Shown here: in pieces, positions 22,980 to 50,735 of the stretch | How positions within the stretch are numbered: the stretch's first letter is position 1 | Layout: each line of letters opens with the position of its first letter | IMG/VR virus record: IMGVR_UViG_3300042564_000781 | Coordinates: 32,001-96,000 of that record | DNA length: 64,000 bases | DNA from: a virus | Direction: 5' to 3' (one strand) | Notes under the pieces: generated by a model | The model's database searches: none | The model's input: the letters and a program-made list of their open reading frames with translations, nothing else | What the model was told of the DNA's origin: nothing | Translations under genes and position numbers: made by a program

Positions 22980-25900
22980 ATGGCAGCAGAATTTAAAATT
23001 GGCAGACTACGATATACATGGAAAGGTGTATGGGCAACAGCAACTTTCTATAACAGGGATGCTGTCGCATCGTATAACGGTAAGACTTATGTGTGTATAG
23101 TACCGCATACCTCTGGCGATTTTTATGACGATTACGAAAATGTAGAACCAAGCGGAGAAATTAAACCTTACTGGGTAATAATGTTGGAAGGTACTAGCTG
23201 GAAAGGCGAATGGCAACCTAATACATTATATACTTTGGGCGCAATTGTATTATATGGCGGAAGCGTGTACAAGAGAATAGTAAACGGCCTGTCAGATGCA
23301 ACATTTAATCCAGCTAGTTGGGAAGTTTACACAACTGTTAATAGTACATGGATTGGCAACTATTCTACTAATCAGTTTTATAAAGTTGGAGACACTGTTA
23401 AGTACGGTGGAATTGTTTATAGTTGTATAACACAGCATACTTCATCTAACTCTATAACATATCCTACATATAGTAATTGGGAAATTTTAGATGTTGGAAT
23501 TGAATATAGGGGCACCTGGACATCTACTAATACATCATATAAGATCAATGACCTTGTTAAATACGGACCCGACTTATGGATCTCAAGACAAGATCATAGT
23601 TCGTCACTTCCATTTAATGCAACTATAGATCCGCTAAACACTACTGCAACTTGGCAATTATGGTTGCCCGGTATTGATTACAGTGCAGCCACTACATGGT
23701 CAGCAACAGTAGTATACCAACCAGGTAATACTGTCAAGTACGGTGGCTATTCTTATATAAATTTAATTGTTAATAATCTTAACATTGTACCATCTACCAA
23801 CGTAGACGGACTAAATCCAGAATGGCAGTTATTGACTACTGGATATGATTTTAACGATGATTGGTTAAGTGGCGTTTCTTATAAAATTGGGTCAGTAGTA
23901 CGCCGAGCCGGCAATCTGTTCGAAGCATTGCAAGATAATTTATCTCAAGATCCTACTGAGTTAATAACAACTACCACATATACCGAGTTAGGTAGTAGCG
24001 GAACAACGCTAATAGTCAACAACACTACTAACATCTTCCCTGGCATGATTATTTCAGGACAAGGATTTGATAAAGGTCAATTTGTTACATCAGTTGAGGA
24101 TGGTACTACATTAATAATCAGTCAAGCCCCATATCCTACTTTAATAGACGGGCAATCATTGGCATTTTCCGGAGTTAACGGAAATTATTGGGTACCACTT
24201 GTACCTGGAACTCGATGGAGGAATCGATGGGCTGCTACTGAAAATTATGTTGTAGGTGATCTAGCTGTATGGGTTAATGTTACCTATAGATGTATTAAAA
24301 CACACATATCTGAAATAACAAAACGCCCCGATATTAATTCTGGAATCTATTGGGTAGTTGAACTAAATCATGATTACTATAATGTACTGAATATTAAAGG
24401 TGACATAATTGTTAGCACTGACGGTACCAATAACGCACTTGCAATTGGATCTGAAGGATATTTGTTAAAATCAGTAACCGAAATCCCTACATGGGCAAAC
24501 GTATTCCAGTCTCCTGCATTGTATTATGTTGCACCATCAGGCTCCGATGCCTTAACCAGTGGTGATACGTGGGATAATCCTTATAAAACAATTAAGTATG
24601 CCTGTGAGCGAATTGCCGCCGGAACACTAAATTCGTCAGCAACACTATTATTAAAACAAAATAAAACTTTTATAGTAGAAGAAACATACGGACCAGCAGT
24701 ACAATCAATTACAACAACACCTCTCGACCTTATACAAACTAAAAGAGATATTAGATCTCTAGTCGATGCAATCACATATGATCTAGCAAGAGGCGGCAAC
24801 AGTCAGACTGTTGCATTTACTCTTTCATTTTTTGACGAACAGTACAGCTATAAATTTATTACGCCCAGAGTTTCCTCTTCAATTACTGTTCTTATAACAG
24901 CCTTTAATCGAGTGTTTACACTAATCTCTGATATTTTAAATAATATAATAGTTGATCCAACGTTTCAAACAATTTATCCGCAGATAACAGGCACTGTTGC
25001 CGGACTATCCCAAGCCCTAACGTCAGTACAATCATTTCAAAACATAGTTATTACTGCTCTAATTAATGAAAATATCAACAGTATACCTGCTCGAAATCAA
25101 GGTCTTACTGCAACTTTAATGGTTAAGACCGGAGCCTACCATGAAGAATTACCAATTGTAATTCCCGCTAATACAGCACTTAATGGAGATGAACTCAGGG
25201 GTGTAATAGTTTACCCGAAGACAATTATTAATACTATTGCAACTAGATCATTTTCCGCAACAAATTTATTTAGAGTAAATACAACAGAAGGAATGATTAA
25301 CAATACCGCAGTTCAGTTTGTATCAGTTAATCCAGTGTCCGGATTTAATACTGTATTCGGCGGAGTTGTTGCCGGAACAACTTATTATGTAATTGGCAGC
25401 TCCATCACAAGCACTCAATTTTCAGTAAGTGCAATTCCAGGCGGCCCTCCAGTTACGCTATCAAATGCTACTAGTCAAATGAAAGTATTTGGCGGCGATG
25501 CATTAAAGGACATGTTCCGTGTTCAAAATGGTTCAGGTATTAGAAACATGACATTATCTGGGCTGCTAGGCACACTTACAGCACCAAATTCATTTACTAC
25601 ACGTCGTCCGACTGGTGGAAGTTTTGTAAGTTTAGATCCCGGAACCGGCATAGCCGATACCACAGCTCATATTTACAGAAGAAGTCCATATATTCAAAAT
25701 GTAACGACTTTTGGTACAGGATGTGTTGGTTTAAAAATCGACGGCAGCTTGCACGCCCTTGGCAACAAGTCTATAGTGTGTAACGACTTTACACAAATTG
25801 TAAGTGACGGAGTTGGTATATACTGCACTGGACCCGGCGCACTTTGCGAAGCAGTGTCAGTATTTTCATATTATGCATATGCTGGATACTTATCCGAAGC

Positions 25901-28900
25901 AGGCGGCCGTATACGTGCTACTAACGGCAACAGCTCATATGGTAACTTTGGAGTTATTGCTGAAGGATTTGATACTACTGAAATCCCATCAGTTGGCACG
26001 GTATTTAATAGATACTACGAAGCCAGTGCAACTCCTATTAGTGCATTGGGCGCAACTGCTAACATTTTGAAGCTTCAATACAGTCATGCTGGGCAGGAAT
26101 ATATAACATCAACAACTAACTTGCTACAATATAGTAATTCATTTACTAACTGGACAAGTGACGGTAATATTACCCTAATCCAGTCAATACTATCCCCGTT
26201 TGCTAATCAATCAGATGCATGGATTGCAACCGGTAATACCTCTGGAACTAACAGTAGCTATTTTTCAAAATCAATTACTATTGCACCATCGGGAGAAATA
26301 TATACTAACATTGCTGGTATTAATATTACCGGCGGTGGCTTAGGAGCAACATTTGATATTATAGTAACTAGTACGCAATATACAGTGACTATTAACAATG
26401 GAGGTACTGGATATGTTGCAACAAATCAGATTCGTATACTTGGCTCTCAACTAGGCGGAATTTCCGGAGTTAATGATCTAATTATTACAGTTACTGAACT
26501 ATCAGGAACTACTATTACGACAATTACCTCAATTGGAGTAGTACAGATTGGTAGTGTACAACCATATACTGCAAGCATTTTCTGCAAACAGGGCACATCA
26601 ACTACGTTTGATCTTGTAGCTACCTTTAGTGGTTATTCTGCAGCATCGAGTAGTATCAGTTACAACTTTAACACAAATACTATAACTCCGGGTAGTGCAA
26701 CAGGCGGCATGACTCCTGTTGTATTTTCTGCAACGCCTATATCAACTAATCCTGGATGGGTTAGATTATCATTTAGATTCTATGATGTATCCGGATTAAA
26801 CAATACTCTTAAATTGACAATCTACCCAAGATCGCAACTAGGTAATAGCAGCTATACACTAATATACGGAGCACAGTTAGAATTAGGCACCCGCACCGGG
26901 TTTTATCAAGAAACAACTACTGGAAGATATACAGCGTATGCAAATTATGACGTTGTAGGAGCAGGATCCGGAGTTGATTTAGTTGCAGACGAAATTAGAG
27001 ACCGTGGCATATATCAAACTCGTATATTAGAAGTTAACGGAGTTACCGGCGGAGTTGGACATAGACTATCTACTAATAATGCACAAGCAGGCACTGACTC
27101 AACAATTACTATTGCTGGTTCAGATATTGCCGGCCCTAAGGACTATCTTGGAATGCGAGTATTTGTTAATAGCGGCTTAGGAGCAGGCCAATATGGAGCA
27201 ATTTCAGCGTTTGACGCAGAATTAAAAATTGCATCAGTATTAAAAGAATCTTTTACTCAATTAGAAATAACAACAAGTTCAAGTATTGGTAATATTTTTA
27301 CGTTAGCACCAAGTGCTGATGTGTATTCATTATATAATAATCAACCAGTACAATTTGTTCCTACTACCTACGACACTATTGTAACATTGGTAGGACAAAG
27401 TTCAGTAGAGGCAACTAGTACAATAGGAGGTCAAACTAATACTATGTATGTGACCAGCACAGCGCAGCTGACTGTTAACATGCCGGTAACATTTTCAGGA
27501 ATAACCTATGGTGGCGTAACTTCAAATTTCACATATTATATAATTGCAATCCTTAACGAAAATGAAATTCAATTAGGCTTAACAGTAGGCGGCATAGCTA
27601 TCTTCTTAAATAATGATGACGGCAGCATGTCATTAAACTATCCGTCAAATACTGGGTATTTAGGTGCGCCGACTACTAATATGGATATAAATTTGCCAAT
27701 ATATTTTACAGGCGCAGTATTGTCAGAGATCGAAGCTAGTACTGATTATTTCATTAATGATGTCATTGACATTAATAATTTTACTATATCAGACACGTTA
27801 GTAACTCCTACTGCTACAAGCACCACAGCTATTAGTAATACCGTTACTGTAGATACAAGTGATACGTTAGTTCCGTTAAATCCTATTAAATTTGCAGGAA
27901 CTGCATTCGGCTCAATCTTACCAAGCACTAAGTATTATATAAACCACATTGTTGACTCTACAAACATTACTATTTCTCTCGGTACATTAACTACTACTGC
28001 AACTGCTACTCAAAATGAAGGAGAGTTAATAACAGTTGGAGATACTACTGGATTTGCTATTGGAAATGCAATTAAATTTACAGGAACTACGTTCGGCGGT
28101 ATTGTTAACGATCGAATATATTATATTTCGTACATTAATAACGCTACATCACTAATCGTTAGTTCATCGTCGTCGGCATTATCTATTACTGCAACTAATA
28201 CATCAACTAGCATCAACATTAGTGGAACCGTCTACAATAATGTTTTAACATTGATATCATCGAGTAATTTAACACCAATGTATCCTGTAACATTTTCAGG
28301 GACTACATTTGGAAGTATCACAGCAGGTACTACGTATTTTATAAGTAGGATTTATGACTCAACTCGTATATCAATTACTAATTCGATTATTTCAGTAACT
28401 GCAATTGAAACATCAGCAACCTCTAACTTAATACATGTCGAGTCTACTGCCGGATTTGTTGCAGGCAACCCAATAATATTTGGAGGAGTATCATTTGGTG
28501 GTATAGTTTCAGGGCAATTATACTATATTTCTGCAGTTAACTCACCCACAGACTTTACAATTAGTACAACGCCAACTGGATCAGCAGTGGTATTAACGGC
28601 CGGCACCGGAAGTATTACAGCAAGAACTCCTGCAGTAAATACTACAGTAACTACAGCAACTGGTTCGATGATTGGAACTACTAGGGCTAGTGCTAGTCCA
28701 GTATTATTAACTTCTGCAATTGGGCTGTGTATTGTTAGGACAACCAGCTCAACAATCACTTTATCAACTGCTACGGGCCTATTAACCGGTACATCAACTA
28801 CCGTAAAGAAACAATTCACTAGTGATGCAGGCTCTATGGTAGGTACTTTTAGTGTACCTATACTTGGTGGTATTACTCAAGGAATCACCTACTACGTCCG

Positions 28901-31088
28901 TACTATTACACCGGGTGTATCAAATACATTTACAATAACAGCTACAAGTGGCGGCGGGACTAATGTAACACTAACAGATACAGTAGGTTCTATGAAGATA
29001 GGGCAGATAGGCTGGGATCATATAAATCCAGGAACACCATTAGTAGCATCGTTTGACTCCACATCTGTGTACAGTATTGAGCCACGAATTATATATTCTA
29101 AACCCAATTTTACATCAACTAGCTCATTAGCTACTACACAAGCAGTTGGGGTTTCTTATGTTGATATAGGATACGGCGGCGGTAAATTTACCGGACTTGC
29201 TAATGCTGATTCGACATTAACAGTTAGTGAAGATGGAGTACTATGGACACCACAATCATTACCATCTTCTGCAACATGGTCTAGTATTGCTTACGGAAGC
29301 AGTTATTGGGTGATTATATCATCCGGGGGTAGTGGTATTTCTGGCTCTAAAGTATTATACTCAAATAGCAATTTAGCAACATGGAAAACATCCTACTTGC
29401 CAAGTATTGGAAATTGGAGTAAAGTAGCGTACGGAAACGGAAAATTTGTTGCTATCACAAGCAATTCTGCAAGTTCGTCGTACTCATTAAATTTTGGCGC
29501 TACTTGGGTAGCAGGCACAGGATTACCTAATACTACATGGTCAGGACTAACATATGGCGCTGGCACATTTGTTGCAGTAGCAACAGGCGGAACTCAGGCT
29601 GCAAGAAGTACTGATGGAATTACATGGGCATCTAGCACATTACCTAATTCAACTGCATGGTCGGGCGTTGCGTATGGAAACGGAAGATTCGTTGCAGTGT
29701 CATCAACTTTATCTAAAGCAGCATATAGCCTAGATGGGATTACATGGAGTCAATCATTATACAGTGTGCTCGGAACTAATATTGCCTATGGAAACGGAGT
29801 ATTTATTTTAGCAGGAGATGACCCATTTTGTTATACAAGCGAAGATGGAATTGTATGGACCAAAACAGCAGTCGTTCCGGGTGTTGGACGAATGGTGTAT
29901 GGATTATATGGTGTAAACGGAAGATTTGCATCAGTTAGTGGCCAGGATACGGCAATGGTAATTACTGCAGGCAGTCAGACTAAAGCAAGAGCCAGTGTTG
30001 CTGGTGGAAAAATTATAGAGATTAACGAATGGGATCCAGGTTCAAATTATATAAATTCCCCAACAGTAACCATAGTCGATGCTAATGCTACAGTTTTAAC
30101 AGCAACGTCGCCACTACTTGGCTCTGGTGTATTAGGAAATCCTACATTTATTAATCGAGGCACAGGATATAATACTAATACTACTACTATTACAATTACA
30201 GGAGATGGGTATGCTGAACGTTTTCAAACTGGTCTAGGAATCATTATTAGCAATTTGATAGTATTGCCAGTAGCCGGTGATAATCTTGCAATCGCTGGGA
30301 ACGACACAATCTATAAAGTAACGTCTGCAACACTATTAGATGGATCAATTACTCCAAACATTATTGCTGAAGTATTTGTGTCACCTGAAATAACAGTTGG
30401 CTTATCACCTAATCAGGGAGTGCCTGTATCAATCAGGACAAAATACAGTCAAGTACGATTAACTAATCATGACTACTTGAACATTGGATACGGAAACTTT
30501 GAAGAATCAAATTATCCATTGCTACCAGCAAGCACAGTATTGTCGCAAGAGAATGAGGCAGTTGATGCTAACTATGGCCGTGTGTTTTATTCTTCAACAG
30601 ACCAAGACGGTAACTTCCGAGTTGGTAAACTATTTGCGGTTGAGCAGGCTACTGGTATTATTACGCTAAGTGCTAGTCAATTTGGACTAAGCGGACTAAA
30701 TGAACTTAAAATTGGTGGCGTTGCAGTCGGCGGCAACAGTGTTATTATTACACAGTTTAGTACAGACTCTACGTTTGTTGCAAATTCTAATAGCATTGTG
30801 CCAACACAAAAAGCAATTAAGGCATACTTAGGTGCAAAATTAACACAGGGTGGATCTAATACATTTACCGGGCAATTAATTGCTGGTACTGTGTTAGTCG
30901 GCGGACCTGATAAGATTGCCAGTACTATTGTTGAAGGTAACGATGGATGGCATATAAACATGCCAAATACAGTCGATGTAACGGGTGTAAATGACGGGAA
31001 CGGCGGCGGCGCTGGCGGCTGGGATGGCGACGGAATGGCAATGGCATTCTTTCAAATGTCCTTTGCCCCAGGAAGTGCTGATCAATAA
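22980..31088 (+). CDS. Giant virion structural protein (2702 aa), paralog of 31138
   Basis: N-terminal W.G.W...T.Y..GD.V.YGG..Y.C...H repeats (CBM5/12-like), beta-helix-like core, nested beta repeats, YGNG.FVAV...S.DGITW propeller repeats, C-terminal KYSQVRLT.HD...STDQDGNF domain. Confidence 0.8.
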   Translation: MAAEFKIGRLRYTWKGVWATATFYNRDAVASYNGKTYVCIVPHTSGDFYDDYENVEPSGEIKPYWVIMLEGTSWKGEWQPNTLYTLGAIVLYGGSVYKRIVNGLSDATFNPASWEVYTTVNSTWIGNYSTNQFYKVGDTVKYGGIVYSCITQHTSSNSITYPTYSNWEILDVGIEYRGTWTSTNTSYKINDLVKYGPDLWISRQDHSSSLPFNATIDPLNTTATWQLWLPGIDYSAATTWSATVVYQPGNTVKYGGYSYINLIVNNLNIVPSTNVDGLNPEWQLLTTGYDFNDDWLSGVSYKIGSVVRRAGNLFEALQDNLSQDPTELITTTTYTELGSSGTTLIVNNTTNIFPGMIISGQGFDKGQFVTSVEDGTTLIISQAPYPTLIDGQSLAFSGVNGNYWVPLVPGTRWRNRWAATENYVVGDLAVWVNVTYRCIKTHISEITKRPDINSGIYWVVELNHDYYNVLNIKGDIIVSTDGTNNALAIGSEGYLLKSVTEIPTWANVFQSPALYYVAPSGSDALTSGDTWDNPYKTIKYACERIAAGTLNSSATLLLKQNKTFIVEETYGPAVQSITTTPLDLIQTKRDIRSLVDAITYDLARGGNSQTVAFTLSFFDEQYSYKFITPRVSSSITVLITAFNRVFTLISDILNNIIVDPTFQTIYPQITGTVAGLSQALTSVQSFQNIVITALINENINSIPARNQGLTATLMVKTGAYHEELPIVIPANTALNGDELRGVIVYPKTIINTIATRSFSATNLFRVNTTEGMINNTAVQFVSVNPVSGFNTVFGGVVAGTTYYVIGSSITSTQFSVSAIPGGPPVTLSNATSQMKVFGGDALKDMFRVQNGSGIRNMTLSGLLGTLTAPNSFTTRRPTGGSFVSLDPGTGIADTTAHIYRRSPYIQNVTTFGTGCVGLKIDGSLHALGNKSIVCNDFTQIVSDGVGIYCTGPGALCEAVSVFSYYAYAGYLSEAGGRIRATNGNSSYGNFGVIAEGFDTTEIPSVGTVFNRYYEASATPISALGATANILKLQYSHAGQEYITSTTNLLQYSNSFTNWTSDGNITLIQSILSPFANQSDAWIATGNTSGTNSSYFSKSITIAPSGEIYTNIAGINITGGGLGATFDIIVTSTQYTVTINNGGTGYVATNQIRILGSQLGGISGVNDLIITVTELSGTTITTITSIGVVQIGSVQPYTASIFCKQGTSTTFDLVATFSGYSAASSSISYNFNTNTITPGSATGGMTPVVFSATPISTNPGWVRLSFRFYDVSGLNNTLKLTIYPRSQLGNSSYTLIYGAQLELGTRTGFYQETTTGRYTAYANYDVVGAGSGVDLVADEIRDRGIYQTRILEVNGVTGGVGHRLSTNNAQAGTDSTITIAGSDIAGPKDYLGMRVFVNSGLGAGQYGAISAFDAELKIASVLKESFTQLEITTSSSIGNIFTLAPSADVYSLYNNQPVQFVPTTYDTIVTLVGQSSVEATSTIGGQTNTMYVTSTAQLTVNMPVTFSGITYGGVTSNFTYYIIAILNENEIQLGLTVGGIAIFLNNDDGSMSLNYPSNTGYLGAPTTNMDINLPIYFTGAVLSEIEASTDYFINDVIDINNFTISDTLVTPTATSTTAISNTVTVDTSDTLVPLNPIKFAGTAFGSILPSTKYYINHIVDSTNITISLGTLTTTATATQNEGELITVGDTTGFAIGNAIKFTGTTFGGIVNDRIYYISYINNATSLIVSSSSSALSITATNTSTSINISGTVYNNVLTLISSSNLTPMYPVTFSGTTFGSITAGTTYFISRIYDSTRISITNSIISVTAIETSATSNLIHVESTAGFVAGNPIIFGGVSFGGIVSGQLYYISAVNSPTDFTISTTPTGSAVVLTAGTGSITARTPAVNTTVTTATGSMIGTTRASASPVLLTSAIGLCIVRTTSSTITLSTATGLLTGTSTTVKKQFTSDAGSMVGTFSVPILGGITQGITYYVRTITPGVSNTFTITATSGGGTNVTLTDTVGSMKIGQIGWDHINPGTPLVASFDSTSVYSIEPRIIYSKPNFTSTSSLATTQAVGVSYVDIGYGGGKFTGLANADSTLTVSEDGVLWTPQSLPSSATWSSIAYGSSYWVIISSGGSGISGSKVLYSNSNLATWKTSYLPSIGNWSKVAYGNGKFVAITSNSASSSYSLNFGATWVAGTGLPNTTWSGLTYGAGTFVAVATGGTQAARSTDGITWASSTLPNSTAWSGVAYGNGRFVAVSSTLSKAAYSLDGITWSQSLYSVLGTNIAYGNGVFILAGDDPFCYTSEDGIVWTKTAVVPGVGRMVYGLYGVNGRFASVSGQDTAMVITAGSQTKARASVAGGKIIEINEWDPGSNYINSPTVTIVDANATVLTATSPLLGSGVLGNPTFINRGTGYNTNTTTITITGDGYAERFQTGLGIIISNLIVLPVAGDNLAIAGNDTIYKVTSATLLDGSITPNIIAEVFVSPEITVGLSPNQGVPVSIRTKYSQVRLTNHDYLNIGYGNFEESNYPLLPASTVLSQENEAVDANYGRVFYSSTDQDGNFRVGKLFAVEQATGIITLSASQFGLSGLNELKIGGVAVGGNSVIITQFSTDSTFVANSNSIVPTQKAIKAYLGAKLTQGGSNTFTGQLIAGTVLVGGPDKIASTIVEGNDGWHINMPNTVDVTGVNDGNGGGAGGWDGDGMAMAFFQMSFAPGSADQ

Positions 31089-31137: not shown

Positions 31138-34100
31138 ATGGCTGAATTTAAACTAGGTAGAATTAGATTTGTATGGAAAGGTCAGTGGACCGTTGGAACT
31201 CCATATCTAATAGATGACGTGGTAAGCAACGGCGGAAAGAGTTATATTTGTGTTGTAAATCACACTGCTTCTAGTCTTTTCGATACTGATTTGGACTATC
31301 CAGGAGTACCAAGATGGGAAATTGTCGCCGACGGAACACAATGGAATGGCAACTGGGAACCAGAGACATATTACAATCCGGGTGCAGTTGTCAAATACGG
31401 TGCATTAGTTTATATTTGTAAAACTGGTCACACATCGGCTACATATGTAGCACCTACTTATTTGGGACTAGAAGACGATCAAGTAAACTGGGAATTGTTT
31501 GCTACTTCATTTAGCTGGGAAGGCACTTGGACAACTGCTACTCGATATAGACTTAATGATTTTGTAGTTTACGGCGGCACTACCTATGTATGTAATACTC
31601 CGCATATTTCTGCTGCAATCTCAGCAAGCATAACGGCAACTAATTTTACAGTCCTTGCCGGAACTGCTACCCTAACATTTGCATCAAAAGTAGTTGCACC
31701 ATATGCTGTAGGAGCAACAATTACCTTAGCAGGCTTTAGTCCAGCAGCTACTACTTCTCCAGCAAATAATATTAATACAACCTTTACTGTATTAACCTGC
31801 ACTACAACCCAATTAACATTTGCGCTAACAGGTACATATACTAATTCGGTATTAGGTACTGTATCCGGAACAAGCCAGTTGGGATTAGAACTTGACGCAG
31901 CAAAATGGGATACGTTTAATCAAGGAATTACCTATCTAGGAGATTGGAATTCTGCAAGCCTTCCAGGCGGAGCCAATGTTAGATATAAGCAAAACGATAT
32001 TGTAAAATGGGGAGCAGATCTATGGATCTGTATAACCCCACATACGTCAACCGGAGCAACAATAGACACTAGTAAGTTTAGTGTGTTTGTTAATGGATTC
32101 CAATTTGAAAATAGTTGGAATAATTCAACAGTATATCAAATAGGAGATACAATAACGTACGGCGGCTATTCGTATATTGCTAAAACAAATCATACCAACA
32201 AACAACCAACTAGTAATCCTAGTGACTGGGCTGTATTTACTACGGGTATTAATTTTGTAGGTGAATATGATGAAACTACTAATTATCGAGTTGGCGATCT
32301 TATTCGTAACGGTGCATACACATATATTGCTAGACTTGATAGTTTAGCGCAAACCCCTGTATCAGCAACTACTTACTGGGCAAGATTGAATAGTGGATTA
32401 CGCTGGACTAACACACCTGAAACTTATCTAGCAGTTGATTCAGTTGCTGTGTTACCCGGAGTAGGTAGCGGTGCTAAATTTGATGTTACTCGCACTGGCA
32501 CTGTGTATAATGTTACGCTAACTTCAGGACAGGCTGGAATAAATTATGCGGCTCTTGATCGAATTAAAATTCTTGGCAGCAACCTCGGCGGCATTAGTCC
32601 AGCCAATGATATTACAATTACTGTTGTAACAGTTTCAACTAGCGCAGTTGCAACATTTACAGCATCTGGTCGATCAGTAACCTGGACAGTTGACACAGAT
32701 TACTTATTAGGCGACACTGCATCATTTGGTGCGAATAGTTATATCTGCATTGATGCACATACTTCAAGTTCACTAAACAGACCAGATGCTGACGCACAGG
32801 GAGACTATTGGAATCTGTTAACAGCTGGTTCAGAATATAATATTCTTACAACCACAGGTGATCTAGTATACTACGGCGACAACGGCCCTGAAAGACTGCC
32901 GGTTGGAACAAACGGCCAAGTGTTACGAAGCCAAGACGGCGTTCCAGTCTGGGCCAACTACGGATTAATTAATAACTTAGTGTTTGTAGGACCATTGGGC
33001 CGAGATGTTGCTTACCCTGATGCTGGCTCAACGATTGACCAACCTTGGAAAAGTGTAAGGTATGCAGCTAAACAAGTTGAAGAAGGATACTTAAATCCGC
33101 AAGCTAAGATGCTGTTAGTTAAAAACAAACAGTTTATGATGAAAGAAATTACCAACTGGGTAAATTATACTTATACTGTTAGAATTTCAGCCGCTGATTC
33201 CTTAGACGACATATTCACCTGTATCACTACTGTTAATCTAGTAGTAAATATGCCTATTAGTTTTACTGGAACAATTGGAGGAGTTACAGCAGGTGTAACT
33301 TATTATGTTAAAACTATTGTTAACGGTACAACATTTACAATTTCAGACTTGTCTGGAGGTACATTACGTCAGTTAACTACCGGCTCGGGCACAATGACTG
33401 GATCATTGGTGTATGACTATGCGTTCTGCGAACGAGATACTGGATTAATTGTTGACGCATTAATTCATGATATTACACACGGAGGCACCGGCAAAATTAC
33501 TGCTGCCGCAAAAGCATACTATACTGCCGCAGGTAACGCTTACATTAATAACAATTTTGGTGCACAAACTACACAAACCGTTGCAGCATACACTTATCTA
33601 AGTACCCTAGTAGAAAAAATCCTTGGCAATATTGCTTGGAGAAATTACCAAGCAATGAATGGAATTACATCAGGTGTAATTCAAATAGTTGATACTTCAT
33701 TTACTGCCGAAGCAGGCACTTCTATCACAGCAGCTGAATTACTGTCAATTATTACAAACGGCATTCTTGCAGGGTCAGTAACCGCTATACCTGTTGCAAT
33801 TTATCCTAATACTACTATTTCAGTTAAAACTGGAACGTTCACAGAAGTGCTACCAATTGTGATTTCTCCATATACTGCGGTAGTAGGAGATGAATTACGT
33901 AGTTCAGTTATTCAACCAGCTACTGCAAATCCATTGTTAGCTACTGATAAAGCAAAAACTACATCAGCATTGAATCGTATTGCCTCAGTAGCCGGCGATA
34001 TTGTGCAAAACATCGTAGTAACTCCTACAGTAGGAAATACTGAAACACAATATTATGTCGGCGGATATGCGGGTAGTGGAACAACATCAACTGCTGTTGG

Positions 34101-37100
34101 AGCAAAAACTACTGTTATATCAACAATTTTATCAGGCGGCCTTGGCTCAGTTCCATCAACTGTAATTTCAGATCCTGCCGGATATGATGCTGGATATTTA
34201 AATGCACGTAGATTAGTTGTAGCTAACAAGGCATTCTTACAAGCAGAAATTAGTGCATGGATTAATGTACAAATAGCAGGTAATATTGCTCCGTTTGTTG
34301 GATTCACTTATGGTGGCACTGATCAAACAAACTGTGAACGAGATGTAGGGTATATTGTCGATGCTCTACGATACGATTTAACCTATGGCGGGAACTTGGA
34401 AACTATTGTAGCTGCTCGAGCATACTATTCTTATGGATCATATGTTGGTGACTCTGCTTCAAAGCTTCGTGCGTTAGCAGTACAAAATCGTATTAAGAGT
34501 ATCATTGATAATATTGCCGTCGGAGATAATTCAGGCTGGACTAAGTCTGTAGGCAATGCACTTAACCAGGATGATTCGTTACCACACGGATCTGTACCAG
34601 CGGGCGCATTTGCACAAGCACGTATCCAAGAAATATACAATACAATTGACACAGGGGTAACTCCAGATACAATTGAACCTCCGACTAGTTGGGTTAGCAA
34701 TGATCTTGTTCTAGCTAAAATAGCAATTACAAATTTAAAGGCTGGCATACAAGCTGGAGCAATTGAGTACATTAGTACAAAGTATCCAACATTAACATAC
34801 AACACAGTCACTTGTTCTCGAGATGTTGGCTATATGGTTGATGCTGTAGCATACGATGTAATGTTTGGTAGTAATTTTAGATCTATTACGGCTGGTAGAA
34901 GTTACTATAGAGCAACAGCATCTGCACAGTATGTAATTGCAAACCAACTAGCAGCGACATTAGATACTATAACATATATTGACACAGCGATTAGACAAAT
35001 AACAACCGGTCAATCTGGCTCAGTTGGTAGCACATTAGCTGTTTCGAGAGTAGAGACTAGTGCCAATACTATGTATGATATTATTGCTAGCGGGTTAGGA
35101 TCTATACCAACACTAGTATTACCAACACCAACTGGCGGCACCGGCAATGCATATGACAGCAATTATTTAAATGCCCGACAACAAATTGTAGAAAACTACG
35201 CATTCATCAAAGCTGAAATTGCTCAATATCTAAATGTTAACTATAATGCTGTTTGGGTAGCACTTGGTGCAACTGGCCAGGCAGGATGTGCTCGAGATAT
35301 TGGCTACATCTTAGACGGAGTACGCTATGATATTACCTACGGTGGTAACTTACAATCACTAATTGTAGGTAGTGCATACTATTCAAATTACGTTTTAGCT
35401 ATTGGGTCTGGTGAGCTTACTGCAACAGTTGCGGCCTACACTAGAATTAAAACAATCGTTGGACAAATTGCACAACGTCAAACAGTAACACCTACTGTGG
35501 GTTATAGTGGTCCTTCACAATATTTAGGCGGTACCGGTGACCTAGTAGGTACCGCTGCAACCTTTGCTCAAGATCGGGTACAAGACGTTATTGATTGGGT
35601 TAGCAACGGTTACGCTAATGCAACTATTACGCCAAGTATTGCTTGGGCTAGTTCTGCACTACAAACAGCATTTGCAGAAGTTCAAGCAAAGAGATCTGAG
35701 ATACAAGCTGATACGCTATGGTGGGTCTACAAGAATTATCAAAACTTAAACTTTAATGCTGATTTATGTTCTAGAGACGCGGGCTATATTGTTGATGCGC
35801 TAAGTTATGACTTAGTATTTGGCAGTAACTTTGCTGCAATCACAGCAGGAAGAAGTTATCAACGTGCAACACCGTCGGCCCAAGTGGTAGCAACAGTACA
35901 GCGGCAAGCTGAATTAGGTTCAGTTAATTTTATCAAATATAAAGTTAAGCATATTGCAGCCTCGGGCGCAGTAGCACAGATTAATGCAATTGTTTCTGAT
36001 GTGACTGGATTTATTAATGGCGGAGCAATTCCTCGAGTACAATGGACTAATCCATCAACGATTACCAGTGCATATGCTGCTGCGACCGTATTGTTAAGAG
36101 ACAATGCACCATTTATTCAAGCAGAAATCACAGCATGGATCAATGTACAAATTGCGGCCAACGCTTCTGGATTTGTTGGATTACAATTCAGCAGATCAGC
36201 TTGCGAAAGAGATGTAGGTTTAATTATTGAAGCACTAGTATACGATTTAACCTATGGTTACGGTGTTGGTAATATTGGTAAAATTGCTACACTGATTGCA
36301 GGTAAAGCATATTACTCTGCACTAACAAGCGTATTACAAATAGATTCAGGCGACTCAACAGCTACAATTGCAGCTTATAACAGATTAAAGGCTGTTGCAC
36401 AGAGTGTAGTTCAAGACACCGCAGTAACTCCAAGTGCAGGTAATTCTGTATCTCAAGTAAGAGCAGTTACCGGCCAGACAGTTGGGTCAGTTGCTACTGC
36501 TACATCTGTAGGCACATTGGTTGATGTTATCACCAATATAATTACCAACGGTCTTACAACCGGTGTTCCTCAGATAACTATTTCTGCGGTTGCTGGCGGC
36601 ACAACATTTACTAGCGGAACACATAACCTTGCAGTAGGAGATGTTGTTATACCACAATCTACTCCAACTACAGGTAACGGTGGATTTGGCCTAGTTAGCG
36701 GAACAAGATACTATGTTGCATCTACACCGTTAGGCACAACATTTACATTGGCTGCATATCAAGGCGGTGCCGCAATTACTACCTTTACTAACGGTACAGG
36801 ATTAACTATCGCTGCTGAGATTAACAACTTACCAAGTACAAGTTGGGTATCTGCATCTTTAGTTACTTTACGTAATGCATTACAATCAAATAAAGCAACT
36901 ATTAAAAATCAGATTACACAATATATTGCTACTAACTATACTACGTTAGTATACAATTCTTCAACATGTGAAAGAGACGTTGGCTTGATTGTTGACTACA
37001 TTGCCTACGATATGATGTTTGACAGTAACTATCTAACAATAACCTCAGCAAGAAGCTATTTTAGAGCCCAGGCCTCGCTAGTAGTTGGAGCACAAAAAAC

Positions 37101-40100
37101 AGCAACTGTTGCATCTTATAGATATCTAAAAACTTTATTACTAACAGTTGTAGCTAATGATGCTACAGCAACTCGAAAAATTAAAGTGCTGATGGATATC
37201 ATTATCAACACAATGTTAAATGGTATAGGTTCTACATCAGAAGTAACTGGTACCATAACTTATAAAAATAATATTGGATTGTATAACGCAGCAGAGTCTC
37301 TAAGATTGAATAAAGAATTCTTAGCAAGCGAAGCTACGTCATGGATTAGTGCAAACTTTGGCGGAACTGTGACAACAACTACTGCAACTACTAACCTGTT
37401 TACTACTAGCTCAGCGCACAATCTAATAGTAAGCGACCCTATTAGATTCACTGGGTCTATTATTACAAGTAGCGGAGTAACGCAGAATACTACATATTAT
37501 GTATTAACAACACCTTCTGCTACTACGTTTACACTAAGTACATCACAAACTCTTCCTATTCCAGTTGACGTAACTGCTAACGGAAGCGGCTCAATGACTG
37601 TAAATTATGCGTTTGATGTAACTTCTTGTAAGAGAGACATGAAAGAATACATCGATGGTATCATCTATGATTTAAGTTATACTGGTAACTATCGTTCATT
37701 ACGTGCTGCAGAATTGTATAACAACGCAGTAAGCGGATCGACACTCGCTAATATGTTCTATGTTAGCAACGGTACAGGTTTAAGAAACTGTACATTAACC
37801 GGATTAAACGGAACACTAACAGAAGAAAATGAATACGGAACTAAACGACCAACTGCAGGCGCATATGTTGCATTAAATCCAGGATTTGGCCCAAATGATA
37901 GCAATGTATGGGTTCAAACAAGATCACACTATTCACAAAACGTTACTATGTTTGGTACCGGATGTAGTGGTGCTAAGATTGACGGCGCAATACATGCCGG
38001 TGGCAATCGAAGCATGGTTAAAAACGACTTTACAACAATTCTAAGCGACGGATTGGGCGTATGGGTTACGGGTGCTAATTCATTAACTGAATTAGTTTCA
38101 GTGTTTAACTACTACGGATATGCAGGGTACTTAGCAGAGCTAGGCGGTCGTATCCGTGCTACTAATGGTAACAGCTCATATGGTACGTACGGTACCATAG
38201 CTGAAGGAACTGACACTTACGAACAACCAATTTTTGCAGTCGTTGACAATAGACAACAAGATGCAGTTATAAGCAATGTTGTAGTAAATGGTGTTTTAGG
38301 GACAATTCTTCGTGTAGAGTACTCTAATGCCGGCGTTAATCATACTAATGCAGATATTGGAATTAGTGGCGATGGCATTAATGTAGTAACAATCACTAAC
38401 GAATTCCGTGATGGTGGTGTATTCAATACTAGAATTTTTGATCCTAATGATGGTAGTGCTACAGCAGACTATCCAGGGTATGGCGGATCAAACTATGTAA
38501 ATGCTATTAATGCTGCACAGGGTGGTTCTCTAGGTGAGTTAACTATTGCTAACTCTGATGTTGCATTAGCAACCGCATATCCTACTATGAGAATTATGAT
38601 AACTGCTGGTACAGGTGTTGGTCAATATGCTAATATCTTAGATTACAACAACGGTACCAAACTAGTAAAAATTTATAAAGATAGTTTTGCTACGTTAACT
38701 GTTACTGGCACTGCTGTTACCAACAATCTTTTAACGGTTGCAAGTACTGCTACATTATTTGCAGGAATGTCAATTTACTTAGGCACAACAGTTAACGGAC
38801 TAACTGATAACACTTTGTATTACGTCAGAACTGCTAACTTCTCTAGTACGCAATTCTCTGTAAGTTTAACAGGCGCTGCAGGAACCGCAGTAACTATTAC
38901 TACAACTACTGCTAGCGGATTAACTATTCCGTTGTACGCCGCAGGATGGGATCATGCTGTTCCAGGAACAACAGTTTCTAATGCAATTGACTTAACTTCT
39001 AGTTATATTATCGAACCGCGTATTAGCTATACTGCTCCTGGATATACTGCAACTACAAGAACAGTACCTGCTAATACATACATTGGCTCAACATTTGGTA
39101 ATAATAAATTTGTTGCAATTGGCAACACTGGCACTGCTACAGCCTATAGCCTAGATGGAAAAACATGGGCATCGGGCGGAGTATTGCCAGTCAGTGCCAA
39201 CTGGGGAGATGTTATCTTTGGTGGCGGATCTGGTGTAGTAGCTTCGATCACAGTAGGTGGTTTAGGCGGTGTCGGAGCAATCTTAACACCTATTATGGGA
39301 ACTGCTAACAGCATTGGACTGCCGGGCGCTGACCAAGTAGTCGGAGTCACTATTGTCGACGGTGGCCGAAACTATACAACTGCTCCAACAATTGTGTTTA
39401 CTCCAACAAATGGCGGCCTGGGGGCAGTTGCAGTGTGTACTGTGTTAAATGGAAAAATTGATGCAATCTATATTGATAACGTAGGTTATCCAGGCACTAG
39501 TAACGGTTCAGGTTATAATTCTCCTCCTATTGTAACTGCAGATTCTAGTAAAATTACTAAGATGATAACAAGCCAGTGGGGAAGAAACTATACAACTCCG
39601 CCAACTGTTACAGTAAGCGCACCAGTCAGTGCTACTGCATGGTCTAGTGGTGATGCCGCAACCAGCGGCAATTACTATTCTCATGCTAACGTAGTTGGTT
39701 TAGTAACAACAACTAACTACTACCAAGCAGGTGCCACAGGCACGTTTGGCTCAGTAGCACCTACATTCCAAACAGGAACTGGCGCAAGCGGAACATACGG
39801 TGTTGCATTAACTTATGTAGGAACCTTAGCAACTGGAACTGCTGTTTTGACTAATTCTGGCGTAAGCAGCATAACTATAACAGAACCGGGGCAGGGTTAT
39901 ACAAGTACACCTACAATTTCTGTAGTAGATACTTCTGCTAAGTTTGTTGCAATTTCAGGCAGCGGATCAGTTGATGCTGCATATTTGCTAGCTAGCTCAG
40001 CTAACACCGCATCATGGACAGCAGGCAATAATTTACCTACATCTACTATGACAGGAATTGCATATGGAGTTCTTAACGGAGTTAGCACATATGTAGTAGT

Positions 40101-41946
40101 AGGCGGAACCGGATCTAGTTCAGCAGCTTCTAGTGTAACTGGAATATCTTGGACTACACGTTCATTGCCAACATTAGGATCTGGTAACTACTCAGCAGTG
40201 GCTTTTGGTAACGGACAGTTTGTAGCAATATCAACAGGTTCTACCCTAGCAACCGCAACAAGCACAAACGGCACTACATGGGTAGCCGGAGGTAACTTGC
40301 CATCAGGATTTACTACTGGTACAAGCATTACCTACGGTAATGGACGTTTTGTAGCAATTTGTTCAGCATCTGGAACAGCAACTGCCTACAGTATTGACAA
40401 CGGTACTACATGGAGAAGCTACGGTGTTGGATTACCATCTACACAGACATGGTCCAAAATTAAATATGGTCAAGGACAATTTATAGCAATTGCTACAGGT
40501 AGTACAGTATGTGCTACAAGCCCAGACGGTATCAACTGGACACTACGTACTATGCCAGGTAGCTCGTCTACTTGGTCAACACTATCATTTGGTAATATAA
40601 ACTCTAGACCGTTATGGATTGCTATGAGTTCAACTAGTGGACAAAATGCAGCTTCTATTAATACCGGAGCACAAGCACTAGGACGTATAGCTGTAGCATC
40701 GGGCACAATGACTGAGGTTAGAATGGTTGAACCGGGCAGTGCATATCCTCAGGGAACTGTAACAGCAACTACTGATATTACTAACTTGATTACTGCAGAT
40801 ACTACAGAAAACTTGATTGATAGTCAACCAATTGTATTTTCAAATTGTAACGGCAGTGGCATTGTAACTGAAAAATTATATTATGTAATTGGATCAACTG
40901 TAACTAGCACACAATTTAAGGTTAGTCTAGTGGCAGGAAGTAGCACAGCAGTGGTATTAACCTCAGCTACTGGGTTAACTGGTACTTATAAAGCTGGACC
41001 GATTATAACACAGTTTGATCCTAACAAGGTTATAACAGCATCACTAAACCCACGCACTGGCAACGGTGTACTGGCTAACCCAAGTTTTTACAATAGAGGA
41101 AACACGTTTACCACAGCAACTGGTACATCTGCAGGTGACGGTAATGCTGATCTATATCAGCCTAGTACATTTATTGCCGTTAGAAACTTACACAGAGTAC
41201 CAGCAGCTGGGTCAAATGTGGTATTTGGTTCTTTACCAAGTACCTGGTATAAATTAGTTGCAGCAACAAATGTTCTAGGCAATGCTGGAGAGTATACTGC
41301 TACATTCCAAATTAGCCCAGGAATTAGTGTATTAGAAGCGCCAATTGATGCAGATTTAATAACTACTACTATTAAGTATAGTCAAGTTCGTTTAACTGGA
41401 CATGACTTCTTGTATATTGGTACTGGAAATCAAGCACAGACTAACTATCCGTTTGTTGACCCTACTACTGCTAGTATTGCGGCGCAAACTAATAGTTCAG
41501 GTGGAGGGCGTGTGTTCTTTACAAGTACTGACCAAGACGGAAACTTTAACGTTGGTAACTTGTTTGGAGTTCAACAGTCAACCGGTACTGCTACATTGAA
41601 CGCCGATGCGTTTAACTTATCGGGATTACAATCCTTACAGTTAGGCGCATTGAATATTGGTGTTGGATCAGCAATTATTACACAGTTTAGTACAGATCCG
41701 TATTTTACTGCAAACAGTGATAATATTGTACCTACACAGCGAGCAATTAAATCTTATATTACAGCCCAGATTGGTGGCGGACAGAGCTCATTAAATGTAA
41801 ATACCCTAACAGCAGGTGTTGTGTATATTGCTAATGATTCTATTTCAACAACCAGTGGCGGTCAGTTAAATATAAAAGCAAAAATGAATTTTACAGGTGG
41901 AATTGACGGTGCTCCAGTAGCATTGGGATTCTTTTTACAACGATAA
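31138..41946 (+). CDS. Giant virion structural protein (3602 aa) with eight CxRD helical repeats
   Basis: Same N-terminal repeats, core and C-terminal domain as the 22980 protein, plus eight C-x-R-D...YD repeats at 33427-37700. Confidence 0.8.
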   Translation: MAEFKLGRIRFVWKGQWTVGTPYLIDDVVSNGGKSYICVVNHTASSLFDTDLDYPGVPRWEIVADGTQWNGNWEPETYYNPGAVVKYGALVYICKTGHTSATYVAPTYLGLEDDQVNWELFATSFSWEGTWTTATRYRLNDFVVYGGTTYVCNTPHISAAISASITATNFTVLAGTATLTFASKVVAPYAVGATITLAGFSPAATTSPANNINTTFTVLTCTTTQLTFALTGTYTNSVLGTVSGTSQLGLELDAAKWDTFNQGITYLGDWNSASLPGGANVRYKQNDIVKWGADLWICITPHTSTGATIDTSKFSVFVNGFQFENSWNNSTVYQIGDTITYGGYSYIAKTNHTNKQPTSNPSDWAVFTTGINFVGEYDETTNYRVGDLIRNGAYTYIARLDSLAQTPVSATTYWARLNSGLRWTNTPETYLAVDSVAVLPGVGSGAKFDVTRTGTVYNVTLTSGQAGINYAALDRIKILGSNLGGISPANDITITVVTVSTSAVATFTASGRSVTWTVDTDYLLGDTASFGANSYICIDAHTSSSLNRPDADAQGDYWNLLTAGSEYNILTTTGDLVYYGDNGPERLPVGTNGQVLRSQDGVPVWANYGLINNLVFVGPLGRDVAYPDAGSTIDQPWKSVRYAAKQVEEGYLNPQAKMLLVKNKQFMMKEITNWVNYTYTVRISAADSLDDIFTCITTVNLVVNMPISFTGTIGGVTAGVTYYVKTIVNGTTFTISDLSGGTLRQLTTGSGTMTGSLVYDYAFCERDTGLIVDALIHDITHGGTGKITAAAKAYYTAAGNAYINNNFGAQTTQTVAAYTYLSTLVEKILGNIAWRNYQAMNGITSGVIQIVDTSFTAEAGTSITAAELLSIITNGILAGSVTAIPVAIYPNTTISVKTGTFTEVLPIVISPYTAVVGDELRSSVIQPATANPLLATDKAKTTSALNRIASVAGDIVQNIVVTPTVGNTETQYYVGGYAGSGTTSTAVGAKTTVISTILSGGLGSVPSTVISDPAGYDAGYLNARRLVVANKAFLQAEISAWINVQIAGNIAPFVGFTYGGTDQTNCERDVGYIVDALRYDLTYGGNLETIVAARAYYSYGSYVGDSASKLRALAVQNRIKSIIDNIAVGDNSGWTKSVGNALNQDDSLPHGSVPAGAFAQARIQEIYNTIDTGVTPDTIEPPTSWVSNDLVLAKIAITNLKAGIQAGAIEYISTKYPTLTYNTVTCSRDVGYMVDAVAYDVMFGSNFRSITAGRSYYRATASAQYVIANQLAATLDTITYIDTAIRQITTGQSGSVGSTLAVSRVETSANTMYDIIASGLGSIPTLVLPTPTGGTGNAYDSNYLNARQQIVENYAFIKAEIAQYLNVNYNAVWVALGATGQAGCARDIGYILDGVRYDITYGGNLQSLIVGSAYYSNYVLAIGSGELTATVAAYTRIKTIVGQIAQRQTVTPTVGYSGPSQYLGGTGDLVGTAATFAQDRVQDVIDWVSNGYANATITPSIAWASSALQTAFAEVQAKRSEIQADTLWWVYKNYQNLNFNADLCSRDAGYIVDALSYDLVFGSNFAAITAGRSYQRATPSAQVVATVQRQAELGSVNFIKYKVKHIAASGAVAQINAIVSDVTGFINGGAIPRVQWTNPSTITSAYAAATVLLRDNAPFIQAEITAWINVQIAANASGFVGLQFSRSACERDVGLIIEALVYDLTYGYGVGNIGKIATLIAGKAYYSALTSVLQIDSGDSTATIAAYNRLKAVAQSVVQDTAVTPSAGNSVSQVRAVTGQTVGSVATATSVGTLVDVITNIITNGLTTGVPQITISAVAGGTTFTSGTHNLAVGDVVIPQSTPTTGNGGFGLVSGTRYYVASTPLGTTFTLAAYQGGAAITTFTNGTGLTIAAEINNLPSTSWVSASLVTLRNALQSNKATIKNQITQYIATNYTTLVYNSSTCERDVGLIVDYIAYDMMFDSNYLTITSARSYFRAQASLVVGAQKTATVASYRYLKTLLLTVVANDATATRKIKVLMDIIINTMLNGIGSTSEVTGTITYKNNIGLYNAAESLRLNKEFLASEATSWISANFGGTVTTTTATTNLFTTSSAHNLIVSDPIRFTGSIITSSGVTQNTTYYVLTTPSATTFTLSTSQTLPIPVDVTANGSGSMTVNYAFDVTSCKRDMKEYIDGIIYDLSYTGNYRSLRAAELYNNAVSGSTLANMFYVSNGTGLRNCTLTGLNGTLTEENEYGTKRPTAGAYVALNPGFGPNDSNVWVQTRSHYSQNVTMFGTGCSGAKIDGAIHAGGNRSMVKNDFTTILSDGLGVWVTGANSLTELVSVFNYYGYAGYLAELGGRIRATNGNSSYGTYGTIAEGTDTYEQPIFAVVDNRQQDAVISNVVVNGVLGTILRVEYSNAGVNHTNADIGISGDGINVVTITNEFRDGGVFNTRIFDPNDGSATADYPGYGGSNYVNAINAAQGGSLGELTIANSDVALATAYPTMRIMITAGTGVGQYANILDYNNGTKLVKIYKDSFATLTVTGTAVTNNLLTVASTATLFAGMSIYLGTTVNGLTDNTLYYVRTANFSSTQFSVSLTGAAGTAVTITTTTASGLTIPLYAAGWDHAVPGTTVSNAIDLTSSYIIEPRISYTAPGYTATTRTVPANTYIGSTFGNNKFVAIGNTGTATAYSLDGKTWASGGVLPVSANWGDVIFGGGSGVVASITVGGLGGVGAILTPIMGTANSIGLPGADQVVGVTIVDGGRNYTTAPTIVFTPTNGGLGAVAVCTVLNGKIDAIYIDNVGYPGTSNGSGYNSPPIVTADSSKITKMITSQWGRNYTTPPTVTVSAPVSATAWSSGDAATSGNYYSHANVVGLVTTTNYYQAGATGTFGSVAPTFQTGTGASGTYGVALTYVGTLATGTAVLTNSGVSSITITEPGQGYTSTPTISVVDTSAKFVAISGSGSVDAAYLLASSANTASWTAGNNLPTSTMTGIAYGVLNGVSTYVVVGGTGSSSAASSVTGISWTTRSLPTLGSGNYSAVAFGNGQFVAISTGSTLATATSTNGTTWVAGGNLPSGFTTGTSITYGNGRFVAICSASGTATAYSIDNGTTWRSYGVGLPSTQTWSKIKYGQGQFIAIATGSTVCATSPDGINWTLRTMPGSSSTWSTLSFGNINSRPLWIAMSSTSGQNAASINTGAQALGRIAVASGTMTEVRMVEPGSAYPQGTVTATTDITNLITADTTENLIDSQPIVFSNCNGSGIVTEKLYYVIGSTVTSTQFKVSLVAGSSTAVVLTSATGLTGTYKAGPIITQFDPNKVITASLNPRTGNGVLANPSFYNRGNTFTTATGTSAGDGNADLYQPSTFIAVRNLHRVPAAGSNVVFGSLPSTWYKLVAATNVLGNAGEYTATFQISPGISVLEAPIDADLITTTIKYSQVRLTGHDFLYIGTGNQAQTNYPFVDPTTASIAAQTNSSGGGRVFFTSTDQDGNFNVGNLFGVQQSTGTATLNADAFNLSGLQSLQLGALNIGVGSAIITQFSTDPYFTANSDNIVPTQRAIKSYITAQIGGGQSSLNVNTLTAGVVYIANDSISTTSGGQLNIKAKMNFTGGIDGAPVALGFFLQR
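33427..37700 (+). repeat. Eight protein-level repeats with motif C-x-R-D-x-G-[YL]-[IM]-[VLI]-D-A-x-x-Y-D
   Basis: Cys codons at 33427, 34333, 34813, 35287, 35767, 36202, 36967, 37627; uninterrupted spacings of 160, 158, 160 and 145 aa. Confidence 0.9.
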
Positions 41947-46896: not shown

Positions 46897-46916
46897 AATA
46901 ACGTAGCCTTGTTGTA

Positions 46917-46968
46917 CAGTTACTTATCAGGAATTCTCACTCCTTGTTAACATCGTGATAAGTAACTG
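46917..46968. promoter_or_regulatory. 13-bp inverted repeat forming divergent late-promoter-like GATAAGTA motifs
   Basis: CAGTTACTTATCA 46917-46929 and TGATAAGTAACTG 46956-46968, 26-nt spacer, each reading outward toward ATG 46896(-) and 46984(+). Confidence 0.65.
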
Positions 46969-46983
46969 CATAGAGGAATACAA

Positions 46984-49174: not shown

Positions 49175-49178
49175 TTAT

Positions 49179-50120: not shown

Positions 50121-50123
50121 CAT

Positions 50124-50732: not shown

Positions 50733-50735
50733 AAT

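Follow-up and report, generated by a model that had tools for sequence, protein, structure and literature searches.

Divergent phycobiliprotein-type globin domains repeated in tandem within a predicted giant tail-fibre/baseplate protein of a phage

We analyzed a 64,000-nt window of viral DNA, positions 32,001–96,000 of the IMG/VR record IMGVR_UViG_3300042564_000781, in which one open reading frame (ORF) encodes a giant protein of 3602 amino acids (aa) of tail-fibre/baseplate type. A Cys-x-Arg-Asp (C-x-R-D) motif recurs eight times in this protein. Predicted structures and sequence-profile comparisons indicate that the eight repeats are divergent phycobiliprotein-type globin domains that keep three residues of the bilin site on helix E, and this reading holds at the level of models and sequence. 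We put the probability that the units are homologous to phycobiliproteins at about 0.9. In cyanobacteria, red algae, and cryptophytes, phycobiliproteins are known as the antenna proteins of photosynthesis. The incorporation of a large family of such domains into virus particles would give the fold a new use.

The C-x-R-D motif was found exactly eight times in the 3602-aa ORF, at the cysteines given in Table 1, and its copies extend from nucleotide 33427 to nucleotide 37627. By chance, a mean of 0.024 motifs per shuffle was expected (2000 shuffles of the protein). From copy 1 to copy 8, the Cys-to-Cys spacings are 302, 160, 158, 160, 145, 255, and 220 aa, and the long spacings arise because inserted beta-type segments interrupt the units. 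In an alignment of the six central units, pairwise identity is 26–39%, and the residues C, R, D, G, Y, D, and Y do not vary. Copies 2–8 follow the order A B A B A B A, where A denotes a Y-G-G-N type and B an F-x-S-N type. A profile of the unit family gave 11 matches within the ORF, in which units 1 and 8 were split or partial. In unit 1, an insert separates the first helices from the C-x-R-D helix, and the hidden Markov model (HMM) envelope covers aa 756–878; in unit 8, the first helices are followed by a beta-type insert, the C-x-R-D helix, and a non-helical region, with an envelope of aa 2157–2199. A sequence-only reading of this window had reported eight C-x-R-D repeats, the exact string CARDIGY in copy 4, two subtypes alternating over copies 2–8, and an uninterrupted period of 145–160 aa. 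The translation bears out the number of motifs, their places, their flanking strings, the CARDIGY of copy 4, and the alternation; the period applies to copies 2–6, with inserts elsewhere.

To describe the fold of the repeats, structures were predicted using AlphaFold2 (AF2). An A+B pair (units 2+3, aa 1015–1340), modelled from a 33-row alignment of IMG/VR relatives, was all-helical with a predicted local distance difference test score (pLDDT) of 90.9 and a predicted template modelling score (pTM) of 0.88, and unit 4, modelled from a 121-row single-unit alignment, reached a pLDDT of 97.3 and a pTM of 0.91. The helical character that had been read from the sequence was thus seen in the models. 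Each model was compared with 48,161 chains using VIA-align, a method independent of Foldseek. For both models, the top eight matches were all phycobiliproteins (Z 12.6–14.0 for the pair and 12.7–14.8 for unit 4), and those of unit 4 had 117–143 residues aligned at a root-mean-square deviation (rmsd) of 2.1–2.5 Å. The best match of the pair model was the bilin-binding domain of ApcE (Z 14.0, rmsd 2.1 Å, 118 residues), which sits over unit 3 (model residues 172–304), and the best match of unit 4 was phycoerythrin beta (5aqd_M; Z 14.8, 143 residues at 2.4 Å). Phycobiliproteins also dominated the Foldseek results against the PDB, with template modelling (TM) scores of 0.52–0.73 and best E-values of 0.1 for the pair and 0.018 for unit 4, for which they made up 36 of the 37 listed rows.

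Sequence profiles pointed to the same family. When a profile built from six units of the window was run against PDB sequences, C-phycocyanin alpha ranked first (E 0.0022), the first 19 matches were all phycobiliproteins, and so were 34 of the 44 matches at E ≤ 10. The alignments ran from helix B to helix E and placed C-x-R-D-x-G-Y on Cys84-x-Arg86-Asp87-x-Gly-Tyr. At the Cys84 site of phycobiliproteins, the cysteine forms the thioether to the bilin, the arginine holds a propionate, and the aspartate holds the pyrrole nitrogens; the C-x-R-D of this attachment motif is present in all eight units of the window. With a profile of 121 units, phycobiliproteins accounted for 33 of the 34 PDB matches at E ≤ 1. 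Furthermore, hhalign comparison of the unit family with two CpcA and two CpcB genes from plasmid pREB3 of Acaryochloris marina gave a probability of 89.1 (E 2.2e-6, 54 columns) in the same register. When the 121 units were searched singly against Pfam, the phycobiliprotein family PF00502 was found in 12 of them (E ≤ 10, best 0.0025), and the next family in 3.

Several results weigh against this assignment. Foldseek gave no match to the PDB at E ≤ 0.001 for either model, and PF00502 was not detected in the whole protein at E ≤ 1, in a six-frame search of the record, or in unit 4 alone. VIA-align itself carries the caveat that unrelated helical models may reach Z of about 14; the structural matches by themselves would therefore not decide the question. 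Convergence would mean that an unrelated helical bundle has come to resemble the globin fold and that the C-x-R-D match is due to chance, and both the E-values to phycobiliproteins, all weak (0.002–0.2), and the ease with which helical folds give high Z-scores are what it would predict. It does not readily account for three independent comparisons that return the same family and register, nor for an aligned stretch that covers the B helix together with the motif, and we regard it as very improbable. Because structure comparison, HMM search against the PDB, and profile–profile alignment agree on family and register, homology to phycobiliproteins is taken as likely. The earlier proposal of tandem phycobilin-fold globin domains in a virion protein is therefore supported by both structure and sequence profiles. 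Neither phmmer of the whole 3602-aa protein against the PDB nor blastn of the repeat region against phages gave a match, and a protein atlas search gave no usable one.

Behind the phycobiliproteins, VIA-align ranked bilin-binding photocobilin domains (Z 10.2–12.5) and then sensor globins (Z about 9–11). The closeness of these two groups in the structure lists (Z 10–12.5) would suit another ligand or another use of the cysteine: the domains might bind haem or a different cofactor, as sensor globins do, or a metal, or disulfides between chains might lock a multimeric fibre. One conserved cysteine per unit could in principle crosslink chains. The sequence profiles, however, match phycobiliproteins almost exclusively, with no haem globin among the 34 PDB matches at E ≤ 1, and the motif is the bilin triad; we regard such a use as very improbable.

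The units share with CpcA and other members of PF00502 a globin-type core (helices A to H), over which the superpositions given above extend, and the helix E motif Cys-x-Arg-Asp-x-Gly-Tyr in the same register; CARDIGY also occurs in CpcA chains of the PDB. They are about 12–22% identical to these proteins and stay below the Pfam threshold. Unlike them, they are fused in tandem within a virion protein (8 here, up to 34 elsewhere) and carry an additional near-invariant Asp 14 residues past the Cys. ApcE (for example 4xxi_A), which is among the best structural matches to the units (Z 13.5–14.0, rmsd 2.1–2.2 Å), resembles the phage protein in having a phycobiliprotein-type domain inside a long multi-domain protein. 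It differs in having one such domain and in being located inside the phycobilisome. The bilin Cys of ApcE lies at another position than Cys84, whereas the phage units keep the Cys84-type position. ApcE attaches its own bilin without a separate lyase, which would fit a phage without a lyase gene.

The sequence-only reading had likened the alternating subtypes to alpha/beta pairs, and this comparison failed. Subtypes A and B matched CpcA with probabilities of 88.9 and 76.2, and CpcB with 3.1 and 1.8. Since both match CpcA and not CpcB, the subtypes are not fused alpha and beta subunits. In phycobiliproteins, the alpha-beta monomer is built through an N-terminal X-Y helical hairpin. Whole-unit structural alignments begin at phycobiliprotein residue 31–49 and run to the end, and the helices of the next unit follow directly, indicating that the X-Y hairpin, and with it the alpha-beta monomer interface, is absent from the units. 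The alpha/beta-pair reading was rejected on these grounds. A three-copy complex prediction of the two-unit piece scored 0.00 and speaks neither for nor against a trimer or an (alpha-beta)3-like ring. Alternation as a rule of the family was rejected as well: among adjacent units in 151 family proteins, AA pairs were the commonest (AA 229, AB 70, BA 74, and BB 27, by crude motif classes that leave 122 of 706 units unclassified). Strict alternation characterizes the window protein and close relatives of it (AABABABAo) but does not hold for the family at large.

The family itself is large. HMMER searches of 1.84 billion representative proteins yielded 782 clusters at E ≤ 0.001 and 350 at E ≤ 1e-30, and its members are mostly giants of 1,000–6,400 aa with up to 34 units per protein. 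Units of the family are about 20–40% identical to one another. In 1,570 HMM-aligned units from 151 proteins, the motif Cys is conserved in 92.7%, the Arg in 94.8%, and the Asp in 98.5%, so that the cysteine, whose lack of conservation among homologues the sequence-only reading had named as one refuting outcome, is indeed kept. The second Asp, 14 residues after the Cys, would share a helix face with the motif Asp.

At least 594 related stretches were found in IMG/VR. The BFVD gave 24 structural matches at E ≤ 0.001, all of them proteins of uncultured Caudovirales or Synechococcus phages; they carry the names tail fibre, tail, or structural protein, and phycobiliproteins appear in none of the names. 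Among isolates, the unit family was found only in cyanophages. All 74 positives from a tblastn search of units 2–5 against 50,697 phage records were cyanophages (74/74). The unit profile was positive in 14 of 17 cyanomyoviruses and in none of T4, Atu_ph07, CBB, and PA5oct (0/4). P-HM1 and P-HM2 have four profile units each, with E-values down to 3.4e-26; the other positives are Syn9, P-SSM4 (weak, 1e-5), P-RSM4, Syn33, Syn19, S-SSM5, P-SSM7, S-ShM2, S-SM1, S-WAM1, S-CREM1, and Syn1, and no units were detected with the profile in P-SSM2, S-SM2, and S-SSM7. Taking all searches together, 19 of the 22 cyanomyoviruses examined have units, in ORFs of 3,381–7,312 aa in the profile-positive isolates.

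Outside phages, 185,579 prokaryote species genomes were scanned with a pattern that ends in D/E and so cannot match CpcA. Three loci were confirmed, all on 50–73 kb contigs of metagenome bins assigned to Crocinitomicaceae and Rhodobacteraceae. These are probably phage contigs, and no evidence was thus seen for a cellular home of the family. A search for unit 4 homologues of near length gave one fragment only and no stand-alone single-domain form at that sensitivity, and tblastn against plasmids gave only noise (E=6). Searches of the open literature, which did not cover subscription journals or the supplements of PMC3037559, found no description of such domains in phages.

The closest named counterparts of the window protein occur in T4-like cyanophages, as giant proteins named 'short tail fibre', 'baseplate wedge', or 'virion structural' (PHROGs 9851, 4527, and 5342; T4-GC734 and GC969). 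They share the unit family and the giant-protein context with the window protein and are 22–37% identical to it. In S-SM1, the unit-bearing ORF is T4-GC969, a protein that passages of PMC3037559 report as detected in purified virions. The unit-bearing cyanophages are cyanomyoviruses of 174–200 kb, 17 of the 19 examined with a significant CpeT match, whereas the phage of the window has Rak2/Atu_ph07-like head genes and no cpeT in its approximately 120 kb.

We next consider what the retained bilin-site residues might do. As a candidate function, the units may bind a bilin covalently, which the conserved triad and the modelled fold make plausible, at slightly below an even chance. In this reading, a giant baseplate/tail-fibre protein of a myovirus of about 370 kb carries a string of globin cores without the X-Y hairpin, and each core would covalently bind a linear tetrapyrrole during folding of the protein in the infected cell. 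The attaching enzyme would be a lyase of the host or, where the phage encodes one, its own CpeT-type lyase; alternatively, attachment would be autocatalytic. Up to eight pigments per chain would then be present on the virion. More speculatively, the pigmented array might be a light-responsive element of the adsorption apparatus.

The distribution of cpeT offers a lead for this function, not proof. In six isolates from six genera (S-PM2, S-RSM4, S-CAM4, S-WAM2, Syn1, and S-H9-1), cpeT, a putative bilin lyase gene, precedes the unit-bearing giant gene by 0.3–1.5 kb on the same strand in every case, with only tRNA genes and small ORFs between them, an adjacency whose weight is reduced by the conserved gene order of these cyanomyoviruses. 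In other unit-bearing phages, cpeT is located elsewhere in the genome. Among the 22 cyanomyoviruses, 17 have both units and cpeT, 2 have units only, none has cpeT only, and 3 have neither. The co-occurrence gave a one-sided Fisher p of 0.0065 for all 22, of which 10 had been picked for having units. According to passages of PMC3037559, cpeT is present in 12 of 16 cyanomyovirus genomes compared, what phage cpeT does has not been resolved, and the role played by pebS/pcyA is a mystery.

Three annotation observations were made in these genomes. S-H9-1 holds an unannotated cpeT in an annotation gap just upstream of its unit-bearing fibre gene (MW117966.1 32008–32511, minus strand; PF06206 E 3.9e-43). 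P-SSM4 has a CpeT-like ORF above the PF06206 cut-off (NC_006884.2 16642–17064); cpeT is said not to be found in P-SSM4 in passages of PMC2984593. In S-PM2, 16 annotated tRNA features fall within the giant 'short tail fiber' coding sequence (CDS; NC_006820.1 165928–177267). The frame of this CDS is uninterrupted over 3155 codons, and its locus tag is of the tRNA style, apparently an error in the annotation or its coordinates.

A number of observations weigh against pigment binding. CpeS, CpeT, haem oxygenase, ferredoxin-dependent bilin reductase, psbA/psbD, NblA, and PF00502 were not found in the 120,667-base record to which the window belongs, nor were CpeT, haem oxygenase, bilin reductase, psbA/psbD, or NblA found in 16 related records of 81–270 kb. 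The control genome was positive each time, all 17 records are fragments, and CpeS was searched in the window's own record. The earlier remark that the window holds no bilin lyase or reductase gene is therefore true and extends to this whole record and the 16 relatives. The portal (2702–4423) is closest, at 47–50% identity, to Proteobacteria jumbo phages of the Atu_ph07, CBB, and PA5oct type, so that a cyanobacterial host is not shown. For the cpeT link, S-ShM2 and P-SSM7 have units and no significant CpeT match, the Fisher p was 0.06 for the 11 phages fetched by accession alone, and the three unit-less phages may be one lineage. T-type lyases (CpeT/CpcT) serve Cys153/155 of beta subunits, as described in passages of PMC10452541, a site that differs from the Cys84-type site kept in the units. 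Loading of the units by phage ho1/pebS/pcyA was considered and is unsupported: P-SSM2, which carries bilin synthesis genes according to passages of PMC2984593, makes bilins yet has no units. The motif itself also gives reason for doubt. The best-conserved residue of the family is the second Asp (99.6%) and not the Cys, and the corresponding position in the four CpcA/CpcB sequences holds Cys or Ala. In addition, the neighbouring 2702-aa fibre-type ORF (22980–31088), which has five CBM_5_12 repeats, contains a unit in which Thr replaces the Cys while Arg-Asp and Y-D...G-G-N are kept. A Cys-less unit with Arg-Asp, together with the near-invariant second Asp, suggests that the motif may serve the fold and not a pigment.

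Several of these points are what a pigment-free structural reuse of the fold would lead one to expect. A captured phycobiliprotein gene would now encode only a stiff helical spacer or rod within the fibre/baseplate protein, and folding or packing between domains would be the reason that the C-x-R-D and Y-D residues persist. The missing bilin and lyase genes, the Cys-less unit, the Asp at a position where CpcA and CpcB have Cys or Ala, and a bilin-making but unit-less P-SSM2 all agree with it, as do the loss of the X-Y hairpin and of the alpha/beta logic and the occurrence of up to 34 units per protein, as expected of a length-setting repeat. It is harder to reconcile with a free Cys at the attachment position in 92.7% of the 1,570 units, together with both chromophore-contacting residues, which packing alone would hardly preserve, with the confinement of the module to cyanophages among isolates, and with the adjacency of cpeT to the unit-bearing gene in six genera. 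We consider structural reuse a serious possibility, though short of an even chance.

Under covalent bilin binding, the pigment could have gone unnoticed: 144 bilins per virion, a figure of 8 units × 3 chains × 6 fibres in which the copy numbers are guessed, would give an estimated absorbance of only about 0.02 at 1e12 particles per ml. Some cyanophages depend on light for adsorption. Passages of PMC6628666 state that adsorption of P-HM1 and P-HM2 fails in the dark, cite the same for S-PM2, report that P-SSM2 adsorbs in the dark, and mention light-sensitive receptors or tail fibres as a proposal. Units are present in the light-dependent adsorbers S-PM2, P-HM1, and P-HM2 and were not found in P-SSM2, an anecdote of four phages. 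A light-sensor array, if true, would explain the light-dependent adsorption of these three. The full scenario, in which cyanophage particles would be pigmented through fibre/baseplate arrays, CpeT would act as the loading lyase, and a light sensor would gate adsorption, is unlikely on present evidence. A viral use of the fold in the particle would make directly testable why many cyanomyoviruses carry cpeT and how some cyanophages adsorb in a light-dependent manner without host photosynthesis. Even without a pigment, the units plainly exemplify the recruitment of a host antenna protein as a structural repeat of a virus.

The location of the repeats agrees with a role in the particle. The window holds a phage structural module with portal, prohead protease, major head protein, gp7-like baseplate wedge proteins, two giant fibre-type proteins, fibre assembly genes, and sheath, and the unit-bearing gene sits between the baseplate wedge genes and the fibre assembly genes. 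Its product matched the PHROGs tail fibre families 9851 (E 2.7e-152), 4527, and 5342, and CBM_5_12 (PF02839, E 1.1e-30) in six stretches, all within aa 1–650. By these family matches, it is classed as a putative tail-fibre/baseplate structural protein. The features of the region are listed in Table 1.

Table 1. Features of the unit-bearing region, in window positions
Feature	Positions	Strand	Evidence
Extra Cys-less unit (T-K-R-D ... Y-D ... G-G-N)	24636..25067	+	profile E 1.3e-15
Giant tail-fibre/baseplate-type structural protein (putative), 3602 aa	31138..41946	+	ORF; PHROGs 9851, 4527, 5342
N-terminal region, six CBM_5_12 repeats (carbohydrate-binding)	31156..32787 (bounds approximate)	+	Pfam PF02839
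Unit 1 (Cys764), A-type, split by beta-type insert	33100..33771	+	profile matches 33100-33312, 33403-33765
Unit 2 (Cys1066), A-type phycobiliprotein-like globin domain (predicted)	34183..34677	+	profile E 3.6e-52; AF2 model
Unit 3 (Cys1226), B-type	34681..35118	+	profile E 1.1e-46
Unit 4 (Cys1384, CARDIGY), A-type	35152..35631	+	AF2 pLDDT 97.3; VIA-align Z 14.8
Unit 5 (Cys1544), B-type	35635..36066	+	family profile/HMM
Unit 6 (Cys1689), A-type	36061..36564	+	family profile/HMM
Unit 7 (Cys1944), B-type, beta-type insert before	36835..37260	+	family profile/HMM
Unit 8 (Cys2164), partial	37276..37734	+	profile matches 37276-37383 (positions 5-40), 37603-37734 (positions 34-77)
C-terminal tail-fibre homology	41347..41769	+	best phrog_9851 stretch, aa 3404-3544

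The record of 120,667 bases is an IMG/VR fragment estimated to be 33% complete. Two related records, of 270 kb and 219 kb, have completeness ratings of 71% and 62%, which implies a genome near 370 kb. Cyanophages accounted for 397 of the 459 records matched by the gp7-like baseplate protein (16333–22221) and for 54 of the 65 matched by a tryptophan halogenase (46984–48573).

Several minor observations concern the remainder of the protein and the window. Three short, similar beta-type inserts (aa 706–745, 1823–1880, and 2098–2135) interrupt units 1, 7, and 8; they lie between the first helices and the C-x-R-D helix and follow the pattern ..F-T-G....G-V/L..G-T-x-Y-Y-V.....T-F-T-L/I... After units 1 and 8 (aa ~890–925 and 2200–2450), strands resembling a right-handed beta-helix were noticed by eye (for example N-C-T-L-T-G-L-N-G), and Pfam returned nothing for these presumed beta-helix segments at E ≤ 0.1. 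Downstream of the structural module (45002–55316), three tryptophan-halogenase-like genes, four 2-oxoglutarate (2OG)-Fe(II) oxygenase genes, and one carbamoyltransferase gene form a cluster of a kind seen in the variable regions of cyanomyoviruses. Two endonuclease V (denV-like) genes lie within 7 kb of each other, at 53208–53834 and 60125–60640.

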